Source of the DNA: Callorhinchus milii
Taxonomy: Eukaryota
Direction: 5' to 3'
Assembly (NCBI RefSeq): GCF_018977255.1
Contig: NW_024704782.1
Location: forward strand, 496,001 to 560,000
Length of the DNA: 64,000 nt
Shown here: piece after piece, positions 7,038 to 64,000 of the stretch
Layout of the letters: every line of letters starts with the position of its first letter
How positions within the stretch are numbered: position 1 is the stretch's first letter
Translations under genes and position numbers: made by a program
The notes under the pieces: model-generated
Told to the model about the DNA's origin: nothing
Seen by the model: the letters and a program-made list of their open reading frames with translations, nothing else
The model's database searches: none

Positions 7038-10000
7038 TCACAGTTCCCCAGGGTCGTGCTCCCCTCCTCCAGTCCCTTGATTTCTCTCCGAATCGTCCGC
7101 CTTCACTTGACCCTCTGTGGACGGCTTCGGCCGCTCCGTGACTTCGGGCTCCTGGTTTAATCCCGGATCTCCCTTCCCGCTCCACACCTCCGTCAGACAA
7201 CCTGCAAACAACAACGTGGAAGGTGAGATCATTTCGCGATTCGCTCCACGTAACAATCGTCCCAGCGCTTATAGTCATAATAATCCTTGCATTTGATACA
7301 GCGCCTTATCACATCTTTTGAGGTGTCTCAAAACACTTCGCGGGATACGCTGTAAACTGTGGCCACTGTATATTTTGTGGGCGAAACACGTCAGCCCATT
7401 GCATACAGCAGCGTCCCCTCAAACAGTCCTGGATTGAGTGACCAAATTGATTTATTTTTTTCTTGAAGGAAGAAGTTATTACCTCTGGAAAAGCGATGCG
7501 CTAACCCACGTAGAAATAGGAATAGAAGTCGCTGGGAACGCTCAGCAGGTCAGGTAGCATCCATGGAGAAAGGAAAGTGAGTCAATGTTTCGGGTCCACA
7601 ACTCACTTTCCTTTCTCCATAGATGCTGCCTGACCTGCTGAGTGTTCCCAGCGACTTTTGTTTTTGTTTCAGATTTCCAGCATCTGCAGTATTTTGCATT
7701 TAGAAACAGGAACAGGCTATTCAGCCCCTCGAGCTGCCCTTGCCCACCCCCGTATCCCTCAATACCCTGACCTGACAGGTACTGACCTCTCTCGTCATCC
7801 TTTAGCACCTGGGCCTCGCACAGGAAGGTGTCCAGGTTGAGGTGCTGATGGTTGAAGTACCAGTCCTCAACTACCTCCTCATGTGCCTCCAGCATCTTCT
7901 CACACTGCAGGGCACACACACACACACAGTGAGGGGATACACACACACGCAGTGAGGGTTTACACACACACACAGTGAGGGTTTACACACACACACAGTG
8001 AGGGTATATATACACACACACACACAGTGAAGGCACACACACACACAGTGAGGGTATACACACACACACAGTGAGGGCATACACAGCATGAGGGCACAGT
8101 CACAGTCACGAACACACACACACACACACACACAGCATGAGGGCCGTCACTCACGCTGCAGGACAAACGTTCACACAATGTGAGGGCACACACACAACAC
8201 AGACACAGAGTGAGGGCACACACACAAACCACAGACACAGAGTGAGGGCACACACACACACAACACACTCACACAGAGCATGAGGGCATGGTCACAGTCA
8301 CTAACACTGCAGGGCACACACTCACACAACGTGAGGGTACAATCACACACACACGCAGTGCCAGTCCACAGCCACAGTCACTCACAATCTGCTTGCAGAG
8401 GCAAACCACACACCAACTCCTCGACCCCACTCCACCTCTACCCTCCATGGAGTCTGGTCTCCTGCTTGTCCCTCACCCCCTCTGTCTCTAACTGCTGCCC
8501 TGACCTCGGGAATTCTTCCAATTGCCCTGACCTCGGGAATTCTTCCAAGTGCCACTGTCTCCCTCCGCAGGCTGCCAAAACCCTCATACATGCATTAATA
8601 ACATCCAGGCTCGACTACGCAAACTCCCTGCTTGTCAGCCTCCCTCACTCCTCTCTCCATAAGCTGTAAATCATCCCGAACTCTGCAGCCCGTGTCCTCT
8701 CCCGCACCAGGCTCCACGACCCTATCACACCCATCCTCGCCTGACTCCACTCACTTCCCATCACACAGAGGATATAGTTCAAGATCCTGGTCCTCACCTT
8801 CAAAGCCCTCCATGGCCTCGCTCCCCCCACCTCTGCCACCTCCTAACCCCTTACTAACCGGCCCGCTCTCTCCGCTCAGCGGCCTGCTCACGTCCCTCAC
8901 CTGTCCGCCCCCCCATTGGGGGTCAGACCTTCAGCCTATCTGCCCCCACCCTCTAGAATTCCATCTCGCAGTCCCTCCGCTTCACCCCCCCTTGCCTCCT
9001 TCAAGACCCATCTCAAGACCCTCCTCTTCGACTGTGCTTTTGATCACTTGCCCCACCAGCCTCCTCAATCCCGACCCCAGCTTGGGTCTGAAACACTGAC
9101 TGTCCAGCACCTTGGGACGTCCTCTCGATGTGAAAGGCGCAGTACAAATTAATTTTGTTGTTGTCGTCTCTCCCACCGCCTTCAGAAAACTTGTCAAATA
9201 CAGGAATTTACTGTAGCTTTGGTCAACACCCTGGGACCTCCTCCACATCCAGGTTCTGATCCCTACCGTCTCTGTCGTGTTTCAGGAAGTTTCCCCTCTT
9301 TCCCCGCCACCCACCCCCCCACCCCCACCCCGGTTCGAGAGAAGCTAAAGTGCAAGATGTTCAACGTCTGCTCGGCTCGGTCTCTCACTCTCGTCCCTGA
9401 GTCAGGAGGTTGTGGGTTAAGGATTCTAAACTCACAGTCCAGGCTGACTCTCCAGCGCAGTGGGGGAGAGAGCGCCGAACTATCAAGAGACGCCGTCCTT
9501 TTCAGATGAGACGTTAAACCTCACTCCCAGTCTGTGCCCTGTTCAGGCGGATGTTAAAGATCTCCTGCAGCGCTGTCGGGAAAAGAGAAGGATGTTTCTC
9601 TCTCTCTCCCCCGGTGTCCTGGCTGATAATCCCCCAGATACAATCAATCATTCTCCTACGGCTGCTTCTGGAATGCGCTCTGTGTCAATTGGTCGCTGCA
9701 CCTTCGTCCACAGAACACAGTCGTTGCACTTTACAATGATCCTGTGAAGCTCTTTAAGACGAGTGACGTTACAGGTACAATAAAATGCAAAGGATTATGT
9801 TAAACCTCTCTTCGTAAAGAGAGCAGAGGAGAGAGGGTTAGAGAGGGCAGACAGGGACTGAGGGGAAGATAATAATAATAATTCTTGCTTTTGATATCAC
9901 GCCATTGAGACGTCTCAAAGTTCTTCACAGAATACACTGTGGGCGAAACGGGGCAGCCAACTGCGCACAGCAGTGTCCCACAAACAGTCGTGGATTGAGT

Positions 10001-13202: not shown

Positions 13203-13544
13203 CTTGTGCTCTCCGGAGCCGGCGCTGAAGGTGGGCCAACGTCACCCGGGCGTCACACGTCGCGCGCCCCGCCCACTTTGCCGCGCCGCGCGACGCGGTG
13301 ACGCAAGCCGTGAAGCCGGGGCAGGTCCCTGGTCACGTGCCGTCTTCCCGGCGAGCCACTGCGCAGGCGTGACCCGCGCGGACCGACGCTTGGGAGCCGC
13401 CGCCGCCGCCCGTCGATCCGTGTCCATCCTCCGCCGGGAGGCGCCGCCCCCGCCATCGGGGCTCAGGACAGGCGGCCTCTGCCGGGGGGTGACCCGGGTA
13501 CCGGACGCTGCGGTGGTGCCCAGGAAGCCGCTGGTCTGTGGGCG
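13203..13544. promoter_or_regulatory. Bidirectional CpG-island promoter of CNPY4 and MBLAC1
   Basis: 342 bp between divergent ATGs; GGTCACGTG E-box at 13331; NRF1-like TGCGCAGGCG at 13360; YY1-type CAAGATGGCGGC overlapping the CNPY4 ATG; GC boxes. Confidence 0.8.
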
Positions 13545-14189
13545 ATGAGCGCCCCCTGGAGGGTGCGGACCGAACCTCGCGGGAGCCACGAGATCCGGGG
13601 GGGACCCTACTCGGTGCACGTGATCCAAGAGGGCTACGCTTACACGGACCCCGAGGGCCGGGTCCGGGCGGACGGCACCGTGACGCTGGTCAAGGGGCCG
13701 CGGGTGATCGTGGTGGACACGGGCAGCCCCGGCGACGGCCCCCTGATCGTGGAGGGCCTGCGGCAGCGGGGGGTGGCCCCGGGGGACGTCACCCACGTGG
13801 TGTGCACCCACGGCCACTCCGACCACGTGGGCAACCTGGGCCTCTTCCCTCAGGCCACCTTCGTGGTCTCGCACGACGTGTGTCGGGGCCACGTGTACTC
13901 GAGCCACGGCCTGAGCGAGGGGCAGGGGCTGCCCATCGACGGCTGGGCGGAGGTGCTGCCCACGCCCGGCCACTGCGCCCGCGACGTCAGCCTCCTGGTG
14001 AGGGGCACCGCGGAGGGGCAGGTGGTGGTGGCCGGGGATCTGTTTGAGCGGGAGGCGGACGAGGGCAGCTGGCAGGCGGTCAGCGAGAATCCCGCCCTCC
14101 AGGCCCAGCACCGCCGGCGGGTCCTGGAGCTCGCCGACGTCGTCGTGCCCGGGCACGGCCCACCTTTCAGGGTGATAAAGGGGCCGTGA
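13545..14189 (+). CDS. MBLAC1: Metallo-beta-lactamase domain-containing protein 1, single coding exon, 214 aa
   Basis: [24 protein letters not shown] (HxHxDH), TPGH, VAGDLFE and VVPGHG motifs; adjacent to CNPY4 and TAF6. AATAAA at 14570. Confidence 0.96.
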
Positions 14190-21800: not shown

Positions 21801-24800
21801 GAAGAGTCGTCCATGCTCTCGCTCCTTATCTCCTCGTTAACCCTCCTCCCCCACTCGACACTGATCTCTGGTTGTTTCTCTGTGTGAATGAGTCTGGCCC
21901 CGGTTCCTGAGATACAAGTAATCATTAACCCGCATAGTCAGCCTTGCATAGTGTCTCCATGGCAACCATGATGCTCTCTGCCCTATGGACTATTAATCAC
22001 TCAGACCAATGTGAACTGCTTGGAGTTGAATTGGCGCCAAGATGACAGGTTTGGCAACGGAATCCAGCCAGTCCTCCGTGACAGCCTCTCGTCAGGTTCC
22101 TGAGCCAGGATCCCAGGGCACTCACTGCTGATGGCAGCCCAGCCCGGCCCATCGGCTGGACCTGGAAGGGCCAACCAGTCACTGGGGGCAGGGAACCCTC
22201 TCCCTCAGCTCCTGTTAACCCCGCAGCCAAAGCCCCAACTAACTAACGGGGAGGGCGGTCCTCGCTGGACAAGCAGCGGGAAAGCTTGGCCACACAGCGC
22301 TCTCTCTCTCTCTCTCTCTCTCTCGATGGCCGAGCTGTGTGTGGGTTTAGCTGGTTAGACTCCAGCAGTTACCCCACAACGCACGCTCTGCCTTGGATCT
22401 CGCCAACCTGCGCCTAATACTTTCCGGAATTACACAAGCAGGATGCGTCCTTCCAGGGAGAGAGAGAGAGAGTGCATTCCAGTCCAACAATCTATCTCTG
22501 AGATTTCCATGTGTAGGTGGGAGGCATAGGGTTCTCCGCTTGGTTTGGAGACCCTTAAGCAACAGTGATGGTTTCCACATGTGTCAGGCACCTGCCTGAC
22601 TAAACCCAAAAAATGTACCACTGACAATGTGACGTTCAGGAGCTTTCCCTCCTCTTCTCTCTCCCTTCCCCCCACCCCACCTGAAAGGTGCTATACACAT
22701 GTAATTTGTTGTTGTTTCCAGCTGTGTTCCCTTGGGTTTGGAAGGCGCGGTGATCGAATTGAGGTGTTCAGAATGATAAAAGAGATTCAATAGTGGGATA
22801 GCTCCAGAGAAACTATTTCTCCTGGTGGGTGGGGGAATCCAGAACAAGGGGGGGGCATCATCTTAACATTGGACCCAGGCTGTTCAGGAGTGAAATTAGG
22901 AGGCAGGTTTTGTCCCAAAGGGCAGTGGAAACCTGGAACTCTGTCTCTCTCTCTTTCAAAAGGCTGTGGGTTATGGATGGATCCATTCACATTTTCAAGA
23001 GTGAGGTGGGGAGATGTTTACCAGGTCAGGGGATCAAGGGATATGGGGCAAAGGCGGGTAATTGCAGTTGAGGTACAGATCGGCCATGATGTTATAGATT
23101 GGTGGAACAGGCTTGACGGGCTGAATGGTCTCCTCCTGTAACTATTTTTCCAGCTGTTTCTGTTGTTGATTTTTCCCTTCTCTGTGACAGGTGCTGATCT
23201 CCGCTTCACATATCTACGCCACCGGCAGCTCAGGCTGCTGTAACAACCGATGTGGGGTAAGTGACGAGGGGGGGGGGAGGGAGGGAGAGTAAGTGGGGGG
23301 ACTGAGAAATAGAGGTGAGAGGGGCAATGGGGGAGGGCAGTGATGGGGCTAGTGAGAGGTGAGAGTGAGGAGGGGAGAATGAGGTGGCGGGGTGAGGGGC
23401 AATGGGGGGGAGGCAGGAGAGGGAGGAGGAGGGAGTGAGAGGGGGACCGGGGGGATGAGAGAGTGAGAAGTGAGAGGGGCAGTGGGGGTGAGTGAGGAGG
23501 GGAGAATAGGGGGTTGAGTGGGGCAGCGGTGGGGGGAGTGAGAGGGGCAATGAGTGGGGGAGTGAGGGGGGCAGTGATTGGTGGGGGGGGGGGGGGGGGG
23601 CAGTGCGTTGTCGGGAGGCCAGCAAGCGAGATTAAAATGATTTGGAATCACAGAACCTTTCAGCACAGAAGTCATAGAAGTCAACCAACCCCAACTAGCC
23701 CCAATCCCCCACTCGTACCCCAACTAGCCCCAATCCCCCACTCGTACCCCAACTAGCCCCAATCCCCCACTCGTACCCCAACTAGCCCCAATCCCCCACT
23801 CGTACCCCAACTAGCCCCAATCCCCCACTCGTACCCCAACTAGCCCCATTCCCCCGCTCTTGCCCCAACTAGCCCCACTCCCCAATATCCCTGCACATTT
23901 TTCCTTTTTAAGTACCTATCCAATTCTTCTTTTGAAAGCAGCTATCAGATCTGTTTCCACCACCCTTTCAGGTAGTGCATTCCAGACAGTGACATTGCTG
24001 TAAAAAAATAATAATCCTTACATTTGATATAGCGCCTTATCACGTCTTCGAGACGTCTCAAAGTGCTTCATAGAATATACTGCAAATTTACTGTATATTT
24101 TGTGGGTGAAACGCAGCAGCCAATTGTGCACAGGGGCGTCCCACAAACAGTCGTGGATTGAGTGACCACATTATTATTTTTTCTTTTAAGGACTTGCAGC
24201 AAAACGAACCCCCAATTAACTAACTACCGGGTTCCTAGTTACTGCTAGGTAAATGGAGGTGTGTGTGTGTGTGTGTGTGTGGAGTAAGGAAACTTGCCCA
24301 ACTTTTCGCCCTGCCCGGGATTTGAACCCAGGCCCTCTCGCTTGCGAGGCGAGGGCTCTAACCACTAACTTTGCTCTGTCAAAGAGCCGGCAGACTCAAT
24401 GGGCCGAATGGCCTCCTTCTGTCCCGTAACATTCTATGAATCTATAAGCTACAGGCCTCCAACGTGTTAAAGTGTGTGTCCCAGATGTTGCAGTGACAGT
24501 ATTTGTGTTAATGTGTCCTCCCCAGATGTTTCTGTCTGTGTTGCTGTCTGGTCTGGGTGTGGTGGGCTCAGGGTATTGCTTTGCGGTGAGTGTGGTGGGA
24601 CTGGTGAAGGGACCCACGTGTGTGTACAATGGCCAGTGGATTCGCCCCTTTAACGTGTCGCTTGCAGAATTCAGGTACAATTGTGCTCGGACTCGTTCCG
24701 TCTCAGTCCCTCCGCCCTCCGCTCGCCCTGTCATGTCCCTCACACACTCTCTCCAACCTCACAATGCATGTCATAGACGCCGTCCTTCAGATGAGATGTT

Positions 24801-26625
24801 ATTAATAATAATAATCCTTGCATTTGATATCACATGGGCCTTATCACATCGTTCAGACATCTCAAAGCCCTTCACAGGATAATAATAATAATAGTAATAA
24901 GCATTGCACTTGATAGAGCCTTATCACATCATTGAAACGTCTCAATGTGCTTCACAGAATATACTGTAAAGTGTAGTGACTGTGTGTTTCGTGGGTGAAA
25001 CATGGCAGAAACTCAATTGCGCACAGCAGCGTGCCACAAAACGAGATGTAGAGCGAGTGAGCAATTATTATTATTATTATAATTTTTGTTTGGAGGGATT
25101 ATTACCCCCGGGAAAAGCGATCGCCAACCGAATAACAAGCGGGTTCCTAGTTACTGCTTAGTAGAGGCGTGTGTAGACTAAGGAAACTTGTCTGAGGTTT
25201 CGCCCTGATCTGACCTGACCCGGGTCCTCACTCCCCGTCTGTGCCCTGTTCAGGGGGTGGTTAAAGATCTCCACGGCGCTGTCAGAAAAAGAGAAGGGAA
25301 GTTTCAGGAGAAATATTTACAGAAAATTATCTTTCAACGCTTGTCCCCGAAACTCTGGAAATCCCAGCCCTACTCGCCCCCTTTGCCCACCTTCAGATCT
25401 TCCTCTTCGTCCGTGCCATTCCCCCGCGTCAGGCTCCGACACTGTTAAGCACTCCGTGACACTGTCCCATGTGAAGGACGCTGTGTAAACGCAGTTGTCG
25501 TTGTTGTTGAATCGCTAAACCTTTCCCCCCTGGCAGCGGGAGAAGTTACCTGTTTCAGCCCGAGTTGTGGGGTCGCTGTGTGGAGCCCAGAGATGTGGTG
25601 CTGTTTAATACCACGCTGTTCCTGACGCTGTCCTGCCTCAGCTCCCTGCAGTTCTTACTCTGCCTCATCCAGATGGTCAACGGGCTGTGCGGCTGTGTGT
25701 GCGGCACATGTCGCCAATCCAGGAACGTGGTACGTCTCACACACACAGACACGCCAACACACGGCAACACACCCACACTCCAAAACACACACACACACAC
25801 AGACATGCCAACACACAGTCATGCCAACACACACACACACACACAAGGACACACAGACATGCCGACACACAGTCATGCCAACACACACACACACACACAA
25901 GGACACACAGACACGCCAACACGCAGTCATGCCAACACACACCACAGACACATGCCAACACACAGACACGCCAACACACACGGGGACACACAGAAATGCC
26001 GACACACAGTCATGCCAACACACACACACGAGGACACGCAGACACGCCAACACACAGTCATGCCAACACACGCGCGCTGACACATGCCAACACACAGACA
26101 CTCCAACACACAGACGCACAGACATATCAACACAGACACACCAACACAGAGAAACATCAACACACGTGCGTGCCAACACACACATGCCAACACCCGGACA
26201 CGCCAATACACCGGCATGCCAACACACAGACAAATATGATGATGTGTTGACACGGATTAATACACCTCAGGATTTGTCCACAATTTTTCCATAATTCCTC
26301 AACTTGTTATACTCCGTGGGCGGAGACAGTCTGAATTTGAGGGGTTTGTGGGCGGAGCTCTCCTGAGGGGTTTGTGGGCGGGGCTATACAGGGGTGTGTG
26401 GGCGGGGCTACACGCGGGATTGTGGGTGGGACTATACTGGGGGGGGCTGTGGGCGGGGCTATACTGGGGCTTGTGGGCGGGGCTATACTGGGGCTTGTGG
26501 GCGGGGCTATACTGGGGGTTGTGGGCGGGGCTATACAGGGGGTTGTGGGCGGGGCTATACTGGGGGTTGTGGGCGGGGCTATATTGATGATTTCCTCTGG
26601 TTTTTGCCCACAGATCGTGGCCTAA
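18873..26625 (+). CDS. TM4SF/L6-family four-TM protein, copy A (TM4SF5/fish tm4sf21-like), 5 exons, 199 aa
   Basis: Exons 18873-19052, 23191-23256, 24526-24674, 25537-25729, 26614-26625, all GT-AG and in frame. Motifs MCTGKCSK, CIIANLFLFFPN, MGGILGSG, CCNNRCG, GSGYC, GLVKGPTC, YLFQPELWGRCVEP, IQMVNGLCGCVCGTC. The last mini-exon (IVA*) is less certain. Confidence 0.9.
19348..20690 (-). mobile_element. CR1-clade LINE 3' portion (RT C-terminus and tail) in TM4SF-A intron 1
   Basis: MVPGMRDLSYEERLAKLGLFSREQRRLRGDLIEVFK..TRGH peptide; CTATGATTCTATG-type tail. Confidence 0.85.
22080..22440 (+). mobile_element. Unclassified interspersed repeat, copy 2
   Basis: Highly similar to 4925-5290. Confidence 0.75.
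23688..23885. repeat. 30-bp minisatellite (CCCAACTAGCCCCAATCCCCCACTCGTACC)
   Basis: About six tandem units. Confidence 0.9.
24008..24370 (-). mobile_element. tRNA-derived SINE, full length
   Basis: Reverse complement of head, body and tail of the dominant family. Confidence 0.85.
25738..26235. repeat. CA-rich minisatellite (ACACAGTCATGCCAACAC) in TM4SF-A intron 4
   Basis: Degenerate tandem units. Confidence 0.85.
26345..26585. repeat. 24-bp GC-box minisatellite (TGTGGGCGGGGCTATACTGGGGGT)
   Basis: About ten units ending roughly 30 bp before the last TM4SF-A acceptor. Confidence 0.9.
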
Positions 26626-33000: not shown

Positions 33001-34540
33001 GCGTGTGTGTGAATGCTGTGTGTGTGTTGACACTGTGTGAGTGTGTGGACGCTGTGTGGGGGCACGCTGTGTTTGTGGGGGGACACTGTGTATGTGTGTC
33101 GATGCTGTATGTGTGGGGACACTGTGCGTGTGGGGATGCTGTGTGTTCGGGGGACGTTGTGTGTGAGGACAGTGTGTGGGGATACTGTGTGTGTGTGGGG
33201 ACACTGTATGTGTGTATGGACACTGTGTGTGGGGACGCGCTGTGTGTGTGTAGGGACGCTGTGTGTGTGGGGACACTGTGTGTGTGTAGGGACGTTGTGT
33301 GTGTGTGTGTGTAGGGACGCTGTGTGTGTGTAGGGACGCTGTGTGTGTGGGGACGCTGTGTGTGTGGACGCTGTGTGTGTGGACCCCGTGTGTGTGTGGA
33401 CCCTGTGTGAATGTGTGCGGACGCTGTTTATGTGTGTCGATGCTGTGTGTGTGCGCGGATGCTGAGTGTGCGCGGATGCTGTGTATGTACGCACGGATGC
33501 TGTGTGTGTGCGCTGTGTTAGACGCTGTCTCTCTCTGTATACAGATGTTGCTGTCGCTGGTCTTTGCTGTGGTGGGGATTGCGGGCTCCTCTTACTGTCT
33601 CATCTGCTCGGTGCTTGGTGTGGTGAACGGGCCCTACTGTCTCCATGAAACTGACAACGGCACTGAATGGGGCCGTGCCTTCCAGGTCGACATCACCAAA
33701 CTCAACATCACCAACTTAAAGTACGTTCATGCCTGGCACCGAGCCTGGCACTATTCTCAGGTTGGGACTGTGGGGGAAATAACAATTTGCATTTAAATAG
33801 CGCCCTTCACACAGAGTAGCGTTTGGCTCAGTGTCTCACTCTCGCTCTCGAGTCAGGAGATTGTTAGTTTGAGCCCCGCAGCAGTTGGGGGAGAGAGAGA
33901 GAGAGATGTGTGGTGTCAGAGATGTTAAACCCTCACTCACTTTCCGTCTGGGCCCCGTTCAGGGCGGACGTTAAAGATCTCCCGCAGCGCAGTCAGGGGG
34001 AAAGGAGAAGAGAGTTTCTCTCTCTCTCTCTTTCTCTCTCTGTGTGACCTGGCTGACAATCCCCCAGATACAATTGGTGACACACTTCGAAGAGAAAGGT
34101 TTTCAGATGTGACCTGAATAAGGGGGCAAGGCGGAGGAAGGGATTGGGGGGAGTGTTCCAGAGTTTCAGGGCGTAGTGGCTGAAATCGCGGCCACCAATG
34201 GTGGAACGGAGGCCACGAGGGACTGACTAGCAGGAGGCCGGAGTCGGTCGAGGAGAGGCAGCGGGTTGTGCGTTAGGGAGTCAGCAGGTGGGAGAGGGAG
34301 GGAGGTGTCGGGGTGAGGAGGGGTTTAAAGAGGAGTGTAACGTGATTGATTGCTCGCAGGGACACTCACTACCTGCTCAACTACACGCGATGGGACGAAT
34401 GTTTGGAGCCTCCTGATGTCGTTGTCTTCAATTTGGTGCTCTTCAACTGTCAGATCCTCTTCAGCTTCATCCAGTTGATCCTCTGCATCTGCCAACTCAT
34501 CAACGGGTTCTTTGGGACTCTGTGTGGCACCTGTAAATAG
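30048..34540 (+). CDS. TM4SF/L6-family four-TM protein, copy B, 4 exons, 199 aa
   Basis: Exons 30048-30224, 32526-32591, 33545-33720, 34360-34540 with the same intron phases as copy A. Motifs MCTGKCSKCIG, LGGIIGGG, CCSNRCG, GSSYC, GVVNGPYC, WDECLEP, QLINGFFGTLCGTCK*. Confidence 0.92.
32262..32472. repeat. 39-bp tandem repeat (GGTCACGGTGACGGGTTTCCGTGTGTTTCAGACACCTGGCT-like)
   Basis: About five units; single copies of the motif at about 22560, 28245, 29700 (reverse), 38258-38335 and 44495. Confidence 0.85.
32878..33530. repeat. GACGCTGTGTGTGTG minisatellite in TM4SF-B intron 2
   Basis: Degenerate tandem units. Confidence 0.85.
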
Positions 34541-52944: not shown

Positions 52945-52952
52945 TATAAATA
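52945..52952 (+). promoter_or_regulatory. TATA box of the microexon gene
   Basis: CCTATAAATAG, starting 61 bp upstream of the ATG at 53006; GATA site TGATAA at about 52914. Confidence 0.75.
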
Positions 52953-53005
52953 GCAGCCACCTCACTACGGAAAGTCGCCTTCAGACTGACGAACTGACTG
53001 CAAGG

Positions 53006-56000
53006 ATGAAGTCCCAAAGCCACTACCTGTTGGCTGTGCTCGTAGCTGCGGTCTTGGCATCGTCCCTAGGTAATGATCATTCTTTCTCCAAGAGCGCTGA
53101 TACATTCTAAATCTCGATTGAACTCTTTTCCTTCAAGCGGCAAAGCTGTGGTCTCTCTGAGAGAGAGTTGCTCTGGAGAGATGGTGGGATGATATTGTGC
53201 TGCTGTCTGATATTGTGTACAGGTTTAGCCTGGGAAATAAGGCATAAAATGGACCTGACAGCCTACAGTACAGATCGGTTACCCATATGCTGAATATTTT
53301 ATGAAATAGACTGATTTTCAACAGATTCAAGAACCCATGTATAACTATAATCCTTGCATTTGGATGTAATGCCTTCTCACACGGCGCGATGTCTCAATAC
53401 TGTAAAGTGCAAAGTGGTGTGACTGTATTTTGTGTATGAACATGAGATCAGACTCCGCCTGTCAAGTGTTCTGGAACTCTTAATCCAAGTGAAGAGTGCT
53501 ATTTAAATATAATTTATTGGTTGTGGACGTGACATGTCAAGCGACTGCCAGGATGGTGGAAGGCAAACTAGATGTACCTTGGTTTTCTTTCGTCCTAGCA
53601 AATTTTTATGTTCTTATGCTGTTGTTGCCAAATCTCTCAGTCTTGTGAAATGTAAGCTGAAATTTAGTGCAGTTTCTATTCAGTGCTAATTTCTGACACC
53701 AGTTAATAACAATAATATTATAAAATATAAAGTTGAAATATTGTAACTCACAGGCAGGCAAAGAGCCACTGAGAACAATCGTAATAACTTGGTCACTTCA
53801 ATGCTCGACTGTTTGTGGGACGTTGCTGTGTGCAATTGGCTGCCATATTTCGGCCAAAAAATATACAGTCAATTCACTTTACAGTATAATCTGTGAAACG
53901 TTTTGAGACGTCTCGAAGACGTGATAAGGCGCTATATCAAATGCAAGTATTATATTATATCACATGCTTCATAATCTCGGTGCTTCAATATCAGTATCCA
54001 AAAGCCCCTCTGAAACTCACTCTCCGTTACAATTTACCCTCATTTTCATGTACACCGGTCTCAAACCTCTCAGATTTATAAGTCTCTACAGTCGTTACAA
54101 CAGTCCTGAGCATGTCATTCAGCTGGACCTCTGGCTTTTTTGTTCTTGGCATCATGCTCCGCCAGTCAAGCGCTCTGAGATGCTACCCTGCATGACAGGT
54201 GCTATCCAAATGCAAGTCGTTGTAGTTGGTGTAGTTGTTCCCTGGTCCTCCCCCCTTGAGTCCCAGCATCACAACTCTATACACTATCTCCAATTCCCAT
54301 CATTCTCATGGAATTTGTGATATTAAATTCCTCAAAGTTAGGAAAAAATGGCCTCTGACTGTTTGTACTCAATGTTTTATAAAAGATATTGTCAGGAAAT
54401 TATAGAGGTAAAATGTATAAAATGCATATGATTGCACATTACAGTTAACATAAATATCTTTAAATCTCAGGGAAGCATTACGAAGCTTCCGGATACCTCC
54501 CTGCAGGTAATACTCAAAAGTCAAACTGTTTCCTTTGCCTCAACGAATTAGTCAATGTTGCACAGCAATAATCATAACAATAAATTATAGAATAAAAAGT
54601 GTTGTTTACCCCATTGTGTCTGTGAGAGCGTTCATTCCCCCATTGGAGTTTGCTATTAATAAACCTCCTTTGCTCTTTCCCATTGTGTCTGCACTGCTGC
54701 TTCCTCACCAGTAGAGCTCTGTGCTCAACAACATGTTGCATTTGTGTTGTGTGAGGAATAGCACGAGGAGGAAATAAGGAGGGGAAGCTGAGTGACCAGG
54801 AGAAGGGTGGGGATTGGGCGAAGGGAAGGAGGACCCTGGGGTTGCCCTTGGTCTCCACGATGATCCTGGAGTAGCAGGACCATTTGGCTGAGGTTAGGCT
54901 GAGCGATAGGGTTTAGTATAATCCAGCCATGATCAGCCTGTTACCATGAGGCCAGATTTAAGCCACATGCATTTGGAGGCATGGGCCTGGGATGTGATGG
55001 AGCTGAGGTGGCTGTGGTACCAGGAGGATTGAGGGGGAGCAGACTGTGTGGGGTGTGATGGTGAGAGGGTGTTCAGAATGGTGGTGAGGGAGCTGTGCAT
55101 GCGATGCAAAGTTATGACTATTGATGTCAGCAGTGTTAATGTTGTAAGCAGTGATGTTGATTTAGTCAATCTTTATAATCTTTATAATCTCTTCTCTTGA
55201 CAGTTCCTGACCATGGTAAGAAACAGAATTGGCAATATTTGTTTCTTTAAATGTATGTTTTTATTCTTCATCGAGTCAATTGCAGCTCTATGACAAGATT
55301 TAAGGTATATGAATTTACAATATTGAAGAAAAGTAAACCTTTCCATGTTGCGTTATTTTGCTTTAGTTTGCGTTAATTGATTTAGTTGCTACTTTTAAAG
55401 TGTATGTAAATATCTAACTTGGTAATATTGGTAATATTTATATTGAATTCAGAATTTAAAGCTTATTGTTTAATTGGAAAAGGAGACAGTGTGTTTCCTG
55501 ATGGATTTCCATTCTCACGTTGTGGAATTGTTCAGATTCAGTACACAGAGAACCATAGAATCTTACAGCACAGAAGGAGGCCATTCGGCCCATCGTGCCT
55601 GTGCCGGCTCTTTGAAAGAGCTATCAATTAATCCCACTGCCCCGCTCTTAACCCTTAGCCCTGGCAATATTACCTTTTAAAGTACCTTATCTAATTCCCT
55701 CTTGAAAGCAATGTCGAATCTGCTTCCAGCACCGTTTCAGACAGTGCATTCCAGACTGTAACGACTCCCTGGGTAAAAAAAATTCTGCTGGTCTTCCCTC
55801 TGGTTCTTTTGCCAGTTATTTTCAATCAGTCAATCTGATTCAGAGTCAACATGTCTTTACAAAGGAGAAGTCATGCTTAACAAATCTTTTAGAGATTTTT
55901 GAAGCTGTATCTCGCAGGTTAGATAGAGGGGAACCAATAGATGCAGTAAATTTAAATTTTAAGAAGGCATTTGACAAAGTGCTGCACAAAAGGCTATTTA

Positions 56001-59000
56001 TTGCACAAGGTTAAGACCCACGGGATTAATGGGAACATATTCGCATGGATTGAAGAGTGGCTAACGGGAAGAAAACAGAGTGTAGGGATAAACGGGTCAT
56101 TCTCGAATTGGCAGGATGTGACTAGAGGAGTGGAGTCCTGTAGCTCAGTGCTTAGAGCACTCGCTTTGCAAGTGAGAGACCTGAGTTCAATTCCAGGCAG
56201 AGGGCCAAACCTTCTTTACTCTACACACCTAATAATAATCCCTCCAAAACCCAATACAATAATAAATTGGTCATTTTCAATCTACGACTGTTTGTGGGAC
56301 ATTGCTGTGCGCAATTGGCTGCCGCGATCGCCCTCAAATGTACAGTCAATTCACTTTACAGTGTGTTCTGTGAAGCGCTTTGGGACGTCCTCCCGACGTG
56401 AAAAGCGCTATATCAAATGCAAGGATTATTATTATTATAGAGGAGTTCCACAAGGATCAGTGTTTGGGCCTCAGCTATTTACAATTTACCTCAATGACCT
56501 GGACAAGGACATTGAATGTAACGTATCTAAATTCACGGATGACACTAAAATCGGTGGGAGAGTGAGCTCTGAGGATGATGCAAAAAGATTGTAATGGGAT
56601 ATAGATAGTCGAGGGGAGTGGGCGAGTCGGTGGCAGATGGAATTTAATGTGGGGAAGTGTGAAGTTATTCACCTCGGTGGCAAAAATAGAAAAACAAATT
56701 ATTTTCTAGAGGTGGAGAGATTAGATAGTGTTAGTGTTCAGAGGGATTGGGGTGTCCTTGTACACCAGTCCCAAAAAGTTAGTTTGCAGGTGCAGCAGCA
56801 ACTAAGAAGGCGAACGGCAGTTAGCGTTCATTGCAAAAGGTTTAGAGTACAAGAGAGGGAAGTCTCACTGCAACTGTATAGGGCTTTGGTGAGACCGCAC
56901 CGAGAGTATTGTGTGCAGTTTTGCTCCTTATTTAAAAAAGGACAAACTTGCCCTCGAGGGGGTGCAGCGTAGATTCACTCGGTTAGTTCCTGGGATGAGG
57001 GGACTGACCTATGAGAAGAGGCTGAATAAACGAGGACTGTATTCTCCAGAGTACAGAAGAATTAGGGGAGATCTTATTGAGACATATAAGATCCTTAAAG
57101 GGCTGATAAAGTAGTCACTGAGGGTCTGTTTCCCCCAATAGGAGAATCTATAACCGGGGACACAGCCTGAAAATTGAGGGTCAGCCTTTGAGAACAGAGT
57201 TGAGGAAACATTTCTTCACTTAGCGGGCAATGAGTTTATGGAATTCACTCCCCCAGAAGGCTGTAGATGTCAGTCCTTGAACATCTTCAAGGCTGAAACT
57301 GATAGATTTTTAAAAAATAGAGGGATTGGGGGATATGGGGATAGAGCGGGTAATTAGAGTTAGGTCAGAAGATCAGCCACGATCTTATCGAATGGCGGGG
57401 CAGCTCGAGGGGCCGAATGGCCGACTCCTGCTCCTAATTCTTATGTATGTTCTACTTTCAACCTCTGTCTTCTGGTTACTGCAAACAGTTCCTCCCTATC
57501 TACTGCCCTCAACCTTTTTTGCTCTAAAGAGAATAATCCTCAGAACTATTTAGATAATGTCCTCTCCCGCATCAATTTCTGTGACACTATCAGTCTCACT
57601 CTCGCCCGGCTCCACTAGCTCCTCACCCCCAAGAGGAAGGAGTTGAAAATCTTCATCCTTGCCTTCAAAACCCTCCATGGCCTTGCTCCCCTTTACCTCT
57701 GTGATCCAATAAGTCCAAACAGACTTGTCCGCACCCTCTGCTCTGTGCCCTCCGGCCTACTCTATATCCCCCAGTTCTGCCCATCCCATCATCGGCGGTC
57801 AGGCCTTCAGCTGTTCTGTCCCATCCTTTGGAACTCAATCCCACAGTTGCATTGCCTCAACCCCTGCCTTACCGCCTTCAAGGCCTGTCTGATGACCCTT
57901 CTTTTTGACCGCTCCTTCACCCTCCGACTTCTACAACCCTGTCTTCCACTCCTCCTGATCCCAACCACAGCTCGGATTGAAAGCGTTGACTGTCCAGCGC
58001 CTCAGGGCGTTTTCCGACGTGAAAGACGCTGTACAAATGTAATTTGTTGTAATTCACTCACTGAGCTTCTGACTCATGATAAAACATTCATATTAGATCA
58101 GAACACAGAAAAACAAGAGGAACTTTTACTGAGATCTGTAGTCTACCCTAGTCCAGGATCACTGCTGGTCTAACTGATTACCTGTCAAAAATTAAGTCCT
58201 GGATCAGCTCTAACTTTCTCCAGTTGATAGTCGACAATGCAGAGGCTCTCCTGCTTGGCTCCCAATCAATACCTTCTCACCCCACGCACAGACATCATCT
58301 GTTACATTGTCTACTTCTGCTACTTCCTCTCCCCTCAGACCGCCGATACCCTTATCAGCTTTTACCACATACAGGCTTGATTACACCCACACTCTGCTCG
58401 CTGGACTTCCCAACTCTTCCCTCCACAAGCGACAGCCTGTTCAGAACTCTGCAGGCCATGTCCTCTCCCGACCAAACCATTCCTCCCTGACTCCACCGGC
58501 TCTCCATCCCCCGGTGGATCGAGTTCTCACCTTTAAAGCCCTCCACAATCTTGTCCCACCATTTCTCTGTGACCTCTATCTGTCAAACCCTACCAACCCA
58601 TCTGCTCCCACCGCTTGGCGGGCACTGTCCTGTTCGCCACACCTCGGCGGTTGAGCTTTTAGCCTTTCTACCCCCAACTTCTAGAATTCCATCCCAGAGA
58701 CCCTTCGCCACGCCCCCTCCTTTGCCTCCTTGAAGGCATTCCTCTTTTACAGTGTCTTCTATTATTTTCCCACCCGCAACCCTTCGCCTCCACTCCTCCC
58801 AAATCTAACCACCAGCCCAGGTGCAAACCCTTGACTGTCCAATTCTTTGGCACATACATTGAAACATGTAAAACCGCTACAGAAATCGAATTTGTTGTTG
58901 TTGAACTGTGACATTGAATTCCTCAAATTTAGGAAAACATGGCCTCTGACTGTTTGTACTCAATGTTTTATAAAAGATATTGTCGGGAAATTATAGAGGT

Positions 59001-62000
59001 AAAATGTATAAAATGCATATGATTGCACATAGTTACAGTTAACATAAATATCTTTCATTCTTAGGGAAGAAATATGAATCTTCCAGATACCTCCCTGATG
59101 GTAATGCTCAAAAGTCAAACTGTTTCCTTCGCCTCAACTAATTAAAGACAAAATATTGTCATCGACAGGCTGTCTAGTCAATGTTGCACAGCAATAATCA
59201 TCAACATTAAATTATAGAATAAAAAGTGTTGTTTAGCCCATTGTGTCTGTGAGAGCGTTCACTCCCCCATTGGAGTTTGCTATTAATAAACCTCCTTTGC
59301 TCTTTCCCATTGTGTCTGCACTGCTGCTTCCTCACCAGTAGAGCTCTGTGCTCAACAACATGTTGCATTTGTGTTGTGTGAGGAATAGCACGAGGAGGAA
59401 ATAAGGAGGGGAAGCTGAGTGACCAGGAGAAGGGTGGGGATTGGGTGAAGGGAAGGAGGACCCTGGGGTTGCCCTTGGTCTCCATAATGATCCTGGAGTA
59501 GCAGAACAATTTGGCTGAGGTTAGGCTGAGCGATAGGGTTTAGTATAATCCAGCCATGATCAGCCTGTTACCATGAGGCCAGATTTAAGCCACATGCATT
59601 TGGAGGCATGGGCCTGGGATGTGATGGAGCTGAGGTGGCTGTGGTACCAGGAGGATTGCAGGGGGAGCAGACTGTGTGGGGTGTGATGGTGAGAGGGTGT
59701 TGAGAATGGTGGTGAGGGAGCTGTGTATGCGATGGAAAGTTATTACTATAGATGGGAAATAAGCGGTGATGTTGATTTAGTCAATCTTTATAATCTTTAT
59801 AATCTCTTCTCTTGACAGATTATGACATTGGTAAGAATCAGAATTGGCAATTTTTTTTGCCTTAAATGTCTGTTTTTCTTCTTAATCGAGTCAATTGCAG
59901 TCCTATGACATGATCTTAAGGTATATGAATTTACAATATTGAAGAAAAGTTATCAAGCCGGTGGGTACGTCTGTTTCTGTTATTCCTTGCCAAAAGCACT
60001 AAAACAGAATTGTCATAAACCTTTCCATGTTTTGCTATTTTGTTTAATTGATTTAGTTGCTACTTTTAAAGTGTATGTAAATATCTTAATTGATAATATT
60101 TATATTGAATTCAGAATTTAAAGCTTATTGTTTAATTGGAAAAGGAGACAGTGTGTTTCCTGATGGATTTCCATTCTCACGTTGTGGAATTGTCCAGATT
60201 CAGTACACAGAGAACCATAGAATCTTATAGCACAGAAGGAGGCCATTCGGCCCATCGTGCCTGTGCCGGCTCTTTGAAAGAGCTATCAATTAATCCCACT
60301 GCCCCGCTCTTAACCCTTAGCCCTGGCAATATTACCTTTTAAAGTACCTTATCTAATTCCCTCTTGAAAGCAATGTCGAATCTGCTTCCAGCACCGTTTC
60401 AGACAGTGCATTCCAGACTGTAACGACTCCCTGGGTAAAAACAATTCTGCTCGTCTTCCCTCTGGTTCTTTTGCCAGTTATTTTCAATCAGTCAATCACT
60501 GGTTAATGCAAGAGGAAACATTTCCTCCCTATTCACTCGATCAAAACGCCTCATAATTCTGAACATCTCTTTTAAATCTGCACTCAACCTTTTCTCCTCT
60601 TNNNNNNNNNNNNNNNNNNNNNNNNNNNNNNCATCAACCATTCTGCTATTACTTTCACTACACTGAGTTTCGATAGGTAACGTGATCACTACAGAATTTT
60701 GAAAACCAGGGAAAAGGGCTCAGTGAGGACTTACTCGGAGCAGTGCGCTGCCTTTTGAAATCTGATAGGCATTTCAAAATAAATATTTCAGTTATTTAGC
60801 TTGATCAATTTACCACAATCGACCAGTAATACCAAAGCTGAGTACACAATAAACATCCAGCTCACAGCAGCAATTCACATGAAATGTTTGAATTATCACA
60901 CTCCACAGCATCTACTTTCTGGCAACTAAATAGAAATATTGTTTTGAAATGATGTGAATTGACTGCAATTAACAGTTACTATAATCTGTTCTCTTCACAG
61001 GTGGTCTCGGTCTAGGAGGTAAGAATCAAAAGTCACAATATCTCTTTTGGAAAACACAGTAAACTCCTGAAAAGGTGCTCTTTTGATAAATAAGTAAACT
61101 CCTGACAAGTAAACTTGGGCATCGAGGGAAAAGGGCTCAGTGAGGATTATTCGGAGCAGTGAGCTACCTTTTGAAATCTCATATTCATTCCAAAATAAAT
61201 AGTTCAGTTATTTAGCTTGATCAATTTACCACAATCGAGGAGAAATACCAAATGTCAGTTTACAATAAACGTCCAGCTCACAGCAGCAATTCTCATGATT
61301 GTTTGCATTTTCAAACAATTCAGTTATCACACTCCACAGAATCTACTTTCTGACACTAAATCGAAATATTCTTGTGAAATGTAATTAATGTTGATTGACT
61401 GCACTCAACAGTTACAATAATCTGTTCTCTTCACAGCTGGTTATGGTTACGGTCTTGGAGGTAAGAATCAGAATTCACATTATCTCCTCCTTAAACCTAC
61501 ATCTGGGTCTCTACAGAGTTCTGCGACAGATCAGAGACCATTCTATGCCCCCAAAACACTCCTCGTAAATAGTATTTCCCTATCCTCTTTTGGTAAATAC
61601 AGTAAATTCCTGATGAGGTGCTCTTTTGATAAATAAGTAAACTCATGACAAGTAAACCAGGGAAAAGGGCTCAGTGAGGACTTACTCGGAGCAGTGCGCT
61701 GCCTTTTGAAATCTGATCGGCATTTCAAAATGAACATTTCAGTTATTTAGCTTGGTCCATTTACCACAATCCACCAATAATACCAAATGTGAGATGACCA
61801 TTAATGTCCAGCTCACAGCAGCAATTCTCATGATTGTTTGCATTTTCAAACAGTTCAGTTATCACACTCCACAGAATCTACTTTCTGACACTAAATCGAA
61901 ATACTGTTGTGAAATGTGAAGTGATGTTGATTGACGGCACTTAACAGTTACTAAAATCTGTTCTCTTCACAGCTGGTGTCGGTCTAGGAGGTAAGAATCA

Positions 62001-63889
62001 AAAGTCACAATATCTCTTATTCCACAATATTCCTGAGATGATATCCCCGATGTCAGTCGCACGCTCCTCACATCTCTGGTCAGACCGCTATCACCGGAGA
62101 TAATCCTCTATCACTGCGGATAATCCTCTGTCACGAGTGATAATCTACTTTCTGGCACAAAATATCAATATTGTTATGAAATGTGAGGTGATGTTCATTC
62201 AGTCACAACTGTGAAGAGAACAGATACGATAATGTGTTCTCCTCACAGTTGTTCATGGTTACGGTCTTGGACGCAGGAATCAGAATGCACAATACCTTCC
62301 ACCTTTTAAACCGATATCTGTCATTCCACAGAGTGCTGTGACAGATCACAAACTGTTCTATGCCCCCAAACACCGTGTGCAAATAGCATTTCCATATCCT
62401 CTTTTGGAAATCACAGTAAACTCCTGAGAAGGTGCTCTTTTGATAAATAAGAAAACTCCTGACAAGTCAACTTGTGACATCGAGGGAAAAGGGCTCAGTG
62501 TCGTGAAATGTGAAGTGATGTTGATTGACGGCACTTAACAGTTACCAAAATCTCTTCTCTTCACAGCTGGTGTCGGAGTCGGAAGTAAGATTCAAAAGTC
62601 ACTATATCTCTTATTCCACTATATTCCTGAGATGATATCCCCAGATGTCATTCGCACGGTCCGCACATCTCTCGTCAGACCGCTATCACCCGGAATAATC
62701 CTCTGTCACTAGTGATAATCTACTTTCTGGCACAAAATATCAATATTGTTATGAAATGTGAGGTGATGTTCATTCAGTCACAACTGGGAAGAGAACAGAT
62801 ACCATAATCCGTTCTACTCACAGTTGGTTATGGTTACGGTCTTGGACGTAGGAATCAGAATTCACAATGTCTCCTGCCTTAAACCTATATCTGACATTCT
62901 ACAGAGTTCTGCAACACATCACAGACCATTCTATGCCTCCAAAACAGTCTGTAACTAGCGTTTCCCTATCCTCTTTATGTAAACAAGTAAACTCCTGACA
63001 AGTAAACTTGTGGCATTGAGGAAAAAATGGCTCAGCGAGGACTAAGTCAGAGTAGTGAGCTTCTTCCTTTTGAAATCTGATAGGCATTTCAAAATAAATA
63101 TTTCAGTTATTTAGCTTGATCAATTTACCACAATCGAGGAGAAATACCAAATGTCAGTTTACAATAAACGTCCAGCTCACAGCAGCAATTCTCATGATTG
63201 TTTGCATTTTCAAACAATTCAGTTATCACACTCCACAGAATCTACTTTCTGACACTAAATCGAAATATTCTTGTGAAATGTAATTAATGTTGATTGACTG
63301 CACTCAACAGTTACAATAATCTGTTCTCTTCACAGCTGGTTATGGTTACGGTCTTGGAGGTAAGAATCAGAATTCACATTATCTCCTCCTTAAACCTACA
63401 TCTGGGTCTCTACAGAGTTCTGCGACAGATCAGAGACCATTCTATGCCCCCAAAACACTCCTCGTAAATAGTATTTCCCTATCCTCTTTTGGTAAATACA
63501 GTAAATTCCTGATGAGGTGCTCTTTTGATAAATAAGTAAACTCATGACAAGTAAACCAGGGAAAAGGGCTCAGTGAGGACTTACTCGGAGCAGTGCGCTG
63601 CCTTTTGAAATCTGATCGGCATTTCAAAATAAACATTTCAGTTATTTAGCTTGGTCCATTTACCACAATCCACCAATAATACCAAATGTGAGATGACCAT
63701 TAATGTCCAGCTCACAGCAGCAATTCTCATGATTGTTTGCATTTTCAAACAGTTCAGTTATCACACTCCACAGAATCTACTTTCTGACACTAAATCGAAA
63801 TAATGTTGTGAAATGTGAAGTGATGTTGATTGACGGCACTTAACAGTTACTAAAATCTGTTCTCTTCACAGCTGGTGTCGGTCTAGGAG
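53006..63889 (+). CDS. Unassigned secreted Gly/Tyr-rich structural protein encoded by phase-1 microexons; 3' end outside the window
   Basis: Signal exon 53006-53069 (MKSQSHYLLAVLVAAVLASSL, phase 1). Microexons: 54471-54506, 55204-55215, 59065-59100, 59819-59830, 61001-61018, 61437-61460, 61973-61990, 62249-62272 (GC donor), 62567-62584, 62824-62847, 63336-63359, 63872-63889. All are multiples of 3, stop-free and flanked by YAG and mostly GTAA. Confidence 0.82.
54315..55835 (+). repeat. About 1.5-kb segmental duplication, copy 1 (carries the 36-nt and 12-nt exons)
   Basis: Near-identical to about 58907-60497; paired ORFs 54514/59207 and 55474/60136. Confidence 0.9.
55836..57455 (+). mobile_element. 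CR1-clade LINE RT fragment, interrupted by a SINE
   Basis: WIEEWLTGRKQSVGING, GVPQGSVFGPQLF, SKFTDDTKIGG, MEFNVGKCEVIH, LEGVQRRFTRLVPG, RGDLIETYKIL; 3' GGCCGAATGGCCGACTCCTGCTCCT. Confidence 0.9.
56132..56437 (+). mobile_element. tRNA-derived SINE with 9-bp target-site duplication
   Basis: TAGAGGAGT at 56123-56131 and 56438-56446; removing the insert restores RT sequence VTRGVPQGS. Confidence 0.9.
58907..60497 (+). repeat. About 1.5-kb segmental duplication, copy 2
   Basis: Near-identical to 54315-55835. Confidence 0.9.
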
Positions 63890-64000
63890 GTAAGAATCAA
63901 AAGTCACAATATCTCTTATTCCACAATATTCCTGAGATGATATCCCCGATGTCAGTCGCACGCTCCTCACATCTCTGGTCAGACCGCTATCACCGGAGAT
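60690..64000 (+). repeat. Exon-containing tandem array with a 1,899-bp higher-order period
   Basis: Exons 61437/63336 and 61973/63872, and identical ORFs 61543/63442, are each offset by exactly 1,899 bp; the unit is made of 260-540-bp subunits with one microexon each. Confidence 0.92.

Follow-up and report, generated by a model that had tools for sequence, protein, structure and literature searches.

The window, the whole 64-kb stretch of DNA analysed here, corresponds to C41:496001-560000 in an assembly of 992 Mb. Coordinates prefixed C41 refer to the contig and all others to the window, and the counts of array and hairpin exons cover the entire contig C41. The host gene is built from microexons, and its predicted product is secreted and follows a strict Gly-X alternation. 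A TATA box, a signal-peptide-like first exon and two 12-nt exons precede an array of 18- and 24-nt phase-1 exons:

52945..52950, plus strand: TATA box of the host gene (TATAAA), 61 nt 5' of the ATG; both paralogs have the same element
53006..53069, plus strand: first coding exon, signal-peptide-like (MKSQSHYLLAVLVAAVLASSL), with a phase-1 donor; paralogs at C41:473771 and 599556
55204..55215, plus strand: 12-nt microexon, predicted VPDH, from a scan for splice-site patterns; too short for mapping to run contigs
59819..59830, plus strand: 12-nt microexon, predicted DYDI, from the same kind of scan
61001..61018, plus strand: ordinary 18-nt exon of type GL (xGLGLG); joint 63889→61001 in sequencing run X9
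61437..61460, plus strand: ordinary 24-nt exon of type YY (AGYGYGLG), by alignment the nearest kin of the hairpin exons; X9 joint to 61435
61973..61990, plus strand: ordinary 18-nt exon of type VL (AGVGLG), same sequence as the exon at 63872
62567..62584, plus strand: ordinary 18-nt exon of type VV (AGVGVG, final A), with a weaker donor (AA/GTAAGA, the slash marking the exon end) yet included; X9 joint 62586→63334
63336..63359, plus strand: ordinary exon YY of the next repeat unit; X9 joints 62586→63334 and 63357→63870
63872..63889, plus strand: ordinary exon VL, from the pattern scan and an X9 joint

The array consists mostly of 2315-bp units in which the common exon order is GL, YY, VL, hairpin A, VV and hairpin B. 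It ends at C41:582314, about 22 kb past the window, and a closing exon with a stop codon lies at C41:584628. In the upstream paralog at C41:473771 the same array is represented by 12 exons, hairpins among them, and the two arrays together hold 80 exons: 14 of type A, 13 of type B and 53 ordinary ones. In the assembly, each of the 14 VV exons has a hairpin exon on either side. VV exons end in A instead of G, which yields serine on joining to GL; this weaker donor is kept in all 14 copies, and the exon is included in X9. A duplication of about 1.5 kb (54300-55810 and 58900-60490, 89-99% identical in blocks) holds the VPDH and DYDI exons. At two VL exons (C41:482862 and 563766), a deletion has removed the branch-point-like segment upstream, and these exons provide a natural control for how much it matters.

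The upstream paralog array (C41:481900-486560) is about 99% identical to that of the window. Its start is an abrupt junction, and immediately past a GL exon it gives way to a LINE-like fragment, where no terminal exon was found; assembly collapse, a mis-join or a longer allele are possible reasons. Read-through from this paralog into the window array is unlikely, since other genes intervene. Exon-bearing frames between the two arrays match Pfam families, one of them in two places, and pentraxin, 7tm_1 and Cpn60_TCP1 frames lie farther upstream:

7545-7982, minus strand: frame matching DUF3456
13314-14186, plus strand: frame matching Lactamase_B
24448-26077, plus strand: frame matching L6_membrane
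33290-33793, plus strand: second frame matching L6_membrane

Searches for a homologue of the host protein gave nothing useful. With the first-exon frames, none of 92 and none of 25 candidates scored; the 21-residue signal peptide is the one informative part of these frames, which makes the searches weak. A profile search with the first-exon frame gave a single match to a repetitive hydrophobic protein, which we judged spurious, and the papers listed in a literature search for the host protein included nothing relevant. Elastin was considered and dropped, since neither a Lys-Ala nor a Pro-rich exon was found and the end of the predicted gene reads GIPY and VNCA-stop. The gene belongs to a cluster of four or more genes for predicted secreted proteins (window 52945-64000 and C41:473771-679298). 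They are composed almost entirely of phase-1 microexons that are 12-27 nt long and have nearly identical splice sites, and we found no homologue or paper for them. One member, C41:599556-610187, is rich in Trp, Tyr and Gly instead of repeating Gly-X; another lies on the minus strand (C41:674041-632758), and a search up to the contig end found no first exon for it. This cluster may merit more attention than the hairpins to which we now turn.

Two exons of the repeat unit in the window are each preceded by an inverted copy of their own splice acceptor:

62205..62225, plus strand: antisense arm A, inverted copy of the acceptor and start of its own exon, from inverted-repeat and 17-mer searches
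62232..62252, plus strand: acceptor of hairpin exon A, predicted to be paired in the stem (−25.6 kcal/mol; opening energy 18.8)
62249..62272, plus strand: hairpin exon A (VVHGYGLG, final C), likely pseudoexon, with donor AC/GCAGGA at 62273
62781..62800, plus strand: antisense arm B, from inverted-repeat comparison
62807..62826, plus strand: acceptor of hairpin exon B, predicted to be paired (−16.9 kcal/mol for this copy, −24.6 for the common copy)
62824..62847, plus strand: hairpin exon B, likely pseudoexon, with donor AC/GTAGGA at 62848; skipped by X9 joint 62586→63334

The arrangement reported in the preliminary description of this DNA could be reproduced in full. The acceptor at 60984, 61420, 61956, 63319 and 63855 recurs at 62209-62225 as its exact reverse complement, CTGTGAAGAGAACAGAT. 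Locally, 62205-62225 and 62232-62252 form a stem with 19 of 21 positions paired and a 6-nt loop over the acceptor of exon 62249. At the second copy, 16 of 20 positions are paired over the acceptor of exon 62824, again with a 6-nt loop. In both places the arm stands where other exons have the branch-point-like segment CACTTAAC/CACTCAAC (CAATTAAC before exon 61001), at a net gain of 9 nt. The 17-mer matches the window 11 times at up to two mismatches (0.02 expected from 100 shuffles). Its 49 occurrences in the whole genome include 46 on C41, and hairpin arms account for 15 of the 16 antisense matches. All 14 VV and 13 GL motif matches also fall inside the two arrays, and we found no third array in the assembly. 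The hairpin is present at 27 of the 80 array exons, and the exact 17-mer precedes 12 of 13 type-B exons and only 3 of 14 type-A exons. The two arms in the window are minority forms and hence look like recombinants that arose by exchange between A and B. In two further family genes on C41, with microexons unrelated to those of the array, the arm is absent from 25 exons (longest antisense word 4-7 nt); as a GTAAG donor was the basis on which these exons were chosen, they offer no independent control for the donor comparison.

The preliminary description had proposed RNA folding as a check. In such folds the stem is predicted to mask its own acceptor, the single structures are modest, and distant pairing at equilibrium is minor, which speaks against a pairing switch. 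The hairpin of exon 62249 folds at −25.6 kcal/mol (z −2.16, with 7 of 200 shuffles as stable), and that of exon 62824 folds at −16.9 kcal/mol (z −0.42). Opening the last 14 intron nucleotides is predicted to cost 13.7-18.8 kcal/mol for type A (n = 14) and 6.0-13.8 for type B (n = 13, median 13.8, with 6.0 being the copy in the window), as compared to 2.6-5.9 kcal/mol for the 53 ordinary acceptors. In partition functions over 1.8-2.2 kb, the arm pairs with its own acceptor at 0.72-0.80 and with any other acceptor at 0.15 or less. Burial of the pyrimidine tract and AG in this stem would leave the exon unrecognised. A microRNA precursor was also considered and rejected: the Rfam matches scored 33.6 against a gathering score of 82 bits and 22.6 against 90 bits, and were generic hairpin matches on the minus strand.

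Evidence for splicing comes from sequencing runs, 4 of 13 listed of which were examined; none is on record as RNA. The RNA status of run X9 is our guess, and the run is represented by contigs in which rare forms have been dropped. The X9 joints described here are those listed, beyond which lie 774 joints and 483 between-letter rows. The first exon is joined to the array (53054→60999), YY to VL with GT..AG ends (63357→63870, 9 contigs), VL through a VV-type exon to GL (63889→61001), and VV through a GL-type exon to YY (62586→63334, 9 contigs). Since all 14 VV exons in the assembly are flanked by hairpin exons on both sides, these joints span both hairpin types, and A and B are skipped in every listed X9 joint, in one run of contigs from a variant allele or paralog. 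X9 depth is 0 in the bin 62150-62523, which contains exon 62249 alone, and 247-595 in bins with ordinary exons; the bin of exon 61973 has 7.6, its twin 63872 lying elsewhere, and the type-B exon shares a bin with VV. No junction of the host gene was seen among the rows listed for runs X6 and X7.

Most of the depth of the X9 first-exon contig (332 of 340) comes from the upstream paralog, and the assembly lacks three synonymous exon variants that the contigs carry. Judged by these sequences, the source of the spliced X9 contigs is either a variant allele or else the upstream paralog. The DNA of the expressed allele may therefore simply lack the hairpin exons. Compared with the first exon in X9, joints within the array have about 8-14 times the depth. 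The outcome named beforehand as counting against silencing, constitutive inclusion of exons 62249 and 62824, was not observed, and the exons appear skipped. By itself, skipping does not implicate the stem, the donors being damaged as well.

This damage is common to all hairpin exons. The donors of all 27 are altered (GAC/GCAGGA in 14, GAC/GTAGGA in 13), and all 53 other array exons carry the donor GTAAGA, 39 after GAG and 14 after GAA. The changes are G to C at −1 and A to G at +4, with T to C at +2 in type A in addition. By a crude count of matches to the U1 end sequence, GAG donors reach 9 of 11 positions, VV and type B 7 each, and type A 6; the predicted duplex energies are −4.5 kcal/mol for VV and −4.3 for type B. 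A type-B donor no worse matched than that of the included VV exon means that donor decay alone may not account for skipping. The coding sequence has changed as well. If the hairpin exons are skipped, the window gene encodes 292 residues with glycine at 146 of 146 alternate positions; with them included, glycine occupies 219 of 238 such positions, and Pro, Arg, His and Ile enter the protein. Cysteine replaces glycine in 11 of 13 type-B exons. The hairpin exons therefore show decayed splice signals together with relaxed coding constraint, as is characteristic of pseudoexons, and with their codons outside the Gly-X pattern they would be drifting free of selection.

We then turned to the question as to how an exon may acquire an inverted copy of its own acceptor. 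A likely seed is found before ordinary exons of the array:

61407..61426, plus strand: ancestral-type quasi-palindrome AACAGTT...ATCTGTT (6 of 7 positions) before an ordinary acceptor, found by alignment; likely seed of the switch

Ordinary acceptors read AACAGTT, 6 nt, ATCTGTT, an inverted repeat of 6 of 7 positions in GL, YY and VL and 5 of 7 in VV. In front of the hairpin exons, AACAGAT stands in place of the first half, and the remaining acceptor follows upstream of it in complement, the inverted copy spanning 20-21 nt. The contiguous antisense match to the acceptor extends into the exon's own start (TTG), reaching 20 nt in type B and 21 nt in type A of the window; with the starts of other exons it stops at 17 nt. 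The continuation into the own exon start identifies the adjacent acceptor as the template. That the arm nevertheless fits the acceptors of other exons best is accounted for by those acceptors remaining ancestral while its own has drifted. A four-point template switch explains the sequence with 8-9 mismatches and no gap against YY, compared to 12 mismatches and 9 gap columns by linear alignment, and with 9-11 mismatches against GL and VL (linear: 10-13, with 9-11 gaps); these comparators are paralogous exons that have diverged by 14-24%. About 7 nt to the left of the arm are unaccounted for by a single switch. They include CAGTCA, the complement of TGACTG at the equivalent position of YY, possibly the trace of a second template switch.

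The own-start match and the quasi-palindrome point to a local template-switch mutation. A single switch during replication at the existing quasi-palindrome, of the 1-4-3-2 or 3-2-1-4 type, would have put about 21 nt copied from the adjacent downstream acceptor in the place of about 12 nt, among them the branch-point-like CTYAAC, leaving the exon with an inverted copy of its own acceptor. The dead exon would then have been duplicated once, giving A and B, before the 2.3-kb unit was amplified and shuffled by unequal exchange. The proposal that a template-switch mutation tied to exon inactivation was amplified with the repeat is thus the part of the preliminary description that gained support, from the origin, the decay and the RNA evidence alike. 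We consider it probable that a template-switch hairpin masks the acceptor and that the skipped exon, a decaying pseudoexon, was duplicated and amplified with the tandem repeat. The hairpin exons are likely dead exons and not a regulated switch. The narrower claim, that one template switch silenced a coding microexon by means of a hairpin on its own acceptor and that this hairpin still excludes type B, is tentative, and we would sooner bet against it than for it.

The other possibility raised at the outset was a switch of the Dscam type, in which the arm binds alternative copies of the shared acceptor and so selects microexons. As isolated duplexes, arm A does bind the five consensus acceptors more strongly than its own (−29.5 vs −25.9 kcal/mol), and its predicted pairing with the acceptor of exon 61973 is 0.98-0.99 as long as the own acceptor has yet to be transcribed. 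Distant pairing also reaches 0.15 (acceptor of 61437) and, in the common unit, 0.06-0.10. However, the own acceptor is made about 27 nt later, upon which the pairing with that of 61973 falls to 0.06 and then to 0.02. The exons that would have to be silenced are joined serially, four ordinary types in a row in X9, and inclusion is not mutually exclusive. In addition, selector-docking pairs bring one exon to the spliceosome, according to the available part of PMC7404189, whereas pairing here would mask acceptors; and none of the 25 family exons compared outside the array has an arm. Conservation of the pairing across repeat units, which the preliminary description had suggested examining, did not emerge either: among seven distinct hairpin variants from one species, none of the 21 pairs shows a compensatory or G-U change. 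Of all the readings weighed here we give this one the least credence. Only a little better are the prospects of an order of events in which donor mutations killed the exons and the switch struck later, in sequence free of selection and without relevance to splicing. The donor changes at −1 and +4 are common to all 27 exons, as is the hairpin, so that either may be older, and a late switch would fit a lineage that differs from YY by 24% upstream while its arm is nearly unchanged. On the other hand, the arm predates a T to C change in its own acceptor that is common to A and B, and is therefore older than the A/B split; and the switch removes the branch-point-like segment, a loss expected alone to impair the acceptor.

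A third reading shares the origin favoured above and differs as to the present, holding that the hairpin is now selected as a lock that keeps exons with Pro, Arg, His and Cys out of the Gly-X protein, chiefly type B, with a GT donor that could work. We regard this as unlikely, though it has the most in its favour of the three: every one of the 27 copies retains at least 16 of 20 pairs, the type-B donor is on a par with that of the included VV by U1 match and duplex energy alike, the Gly-X pattern would be broken if the exons were included, and the common type-B arm keeps 20 of 20 bases of the ancestral acceptor, even though A and B have diverged by 19% in their downstream introns. The last observation has the direction expected of selection and is not significant, and it may be attributed to exchange between A and B, as seen in the swapped arms. 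Moreover, the arm has diverged at 1 of 21 positions between one A and one B copy, equal to the upstream flank (5 of 91, p 1.0), and the whole stem at 3 of 38 compared to 30 of 225 in the flanks, a comparison of little power (p 0.44). The variation in the stem is nearly all pair-breaking: six of the 21 pairs vary, by mismatch alone, and at one of the six a G to T change at exon position +4 in 11 of 14 type-A copies has gained an extra outer pair, which speaks against our preferred reading. The opening energy of the type-B copy in the window is also a modest one for a lock. Acceptors beside an intact type-B arm (VV and 10 of 13 GL; window 62550-62566, C41:565684 and like copies) are each mismatched to that arm by a single change, and the VL acceptor has a mismatch to the common type-A arm. 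These mismatches possibly reflect escape from collateral pairing, or chance; the cases are too few for testing.

If the narrower claim, silencing by one template switch with a hairpin that still excludes type B, is true, microexon arrays in which every acceptor has this quasi-palindrome would have a built-in one-step route to editing the repeat of a structural protein. Should the stem be causal, the exon would have been lost in a single step, with ancestral and derived acceptors still lying side by side. The locus also calls for caution, as an intron that is perfectly complementary to many repeated splice sites can occur without a switch function.

Silk-fibroin-like proteins resemble the host product in having a predicted signal peptide and a strict Gly-X repeat with Ala, Val, Leu, Tyr and Ser. 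Unlike silk fibroin, the host gene consists of about 45 separate exons of 18-24 nt, belongs to a vertebrate and has no homologue that we could find, so the likeness is one of composition only. The available part of PMC4944945 names no shark protein. With Dscam1, as presented in the accessible portion of PMC7404189, the array shares exons duplicated in tandem and a single intronic element with complementarity to many repeats. Unlike there, the array exons are used in series, the pairing hits the acceptor itself, and there is one arm per dead exon instead of one docking site per cluster.

Stem-loops that mask splice signals include those at MAPT exon 10, SMN2 exon 7, the pyrimidine tract of F8 intron 15 and the branch site of the SF3B3 poison exon (PMC11802352, in the part available). 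Like these, the array hairpin is a local structure that is predicted to favour skipping by sequestering the pyrimidine tract and AG. The stem-loops described in that part tune or guard functional splicing, whereas the array has decayed donors and no sign of conserved pairing. Hairpins from template switching are already known (PMC5453318, PMC8794818, PMC10710096, each as far as accessible). In their study of human-chimpanzee differences, Loytynoja and Goldman (2017; PMC5453318, available part) attribute 31% of events to the 1-4-3-2 or 3-2-1-4 switch. By the same account, a four-point switch lengthens a near-perfect inverted repeat to a perfect one in a single step, and a hairpin can arise without selection. 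The word "splice" occurs 0 times in the main text of that paper. We found no paper on a template switch that silences an exon or makes it a pseudoexon when searching titles and the beginnings of abstracts, a search largely outside subscription papers and therefore weak evidence of novelty.

The present case unites two known things, hairpin-making template switches and hairpins that mask 3' splice sites. As in the events of PMC5453318, so far as that text was available, the array arm is of the type that forms inverted repeats, with a reverse-complement source, a mutation cluster and a prior imperfect repeat. It differs from the events in that portion of the text in that the template is a splice acceptor, a branch-point-like motif was replaced, and amplification has brought the product to 27 copies.
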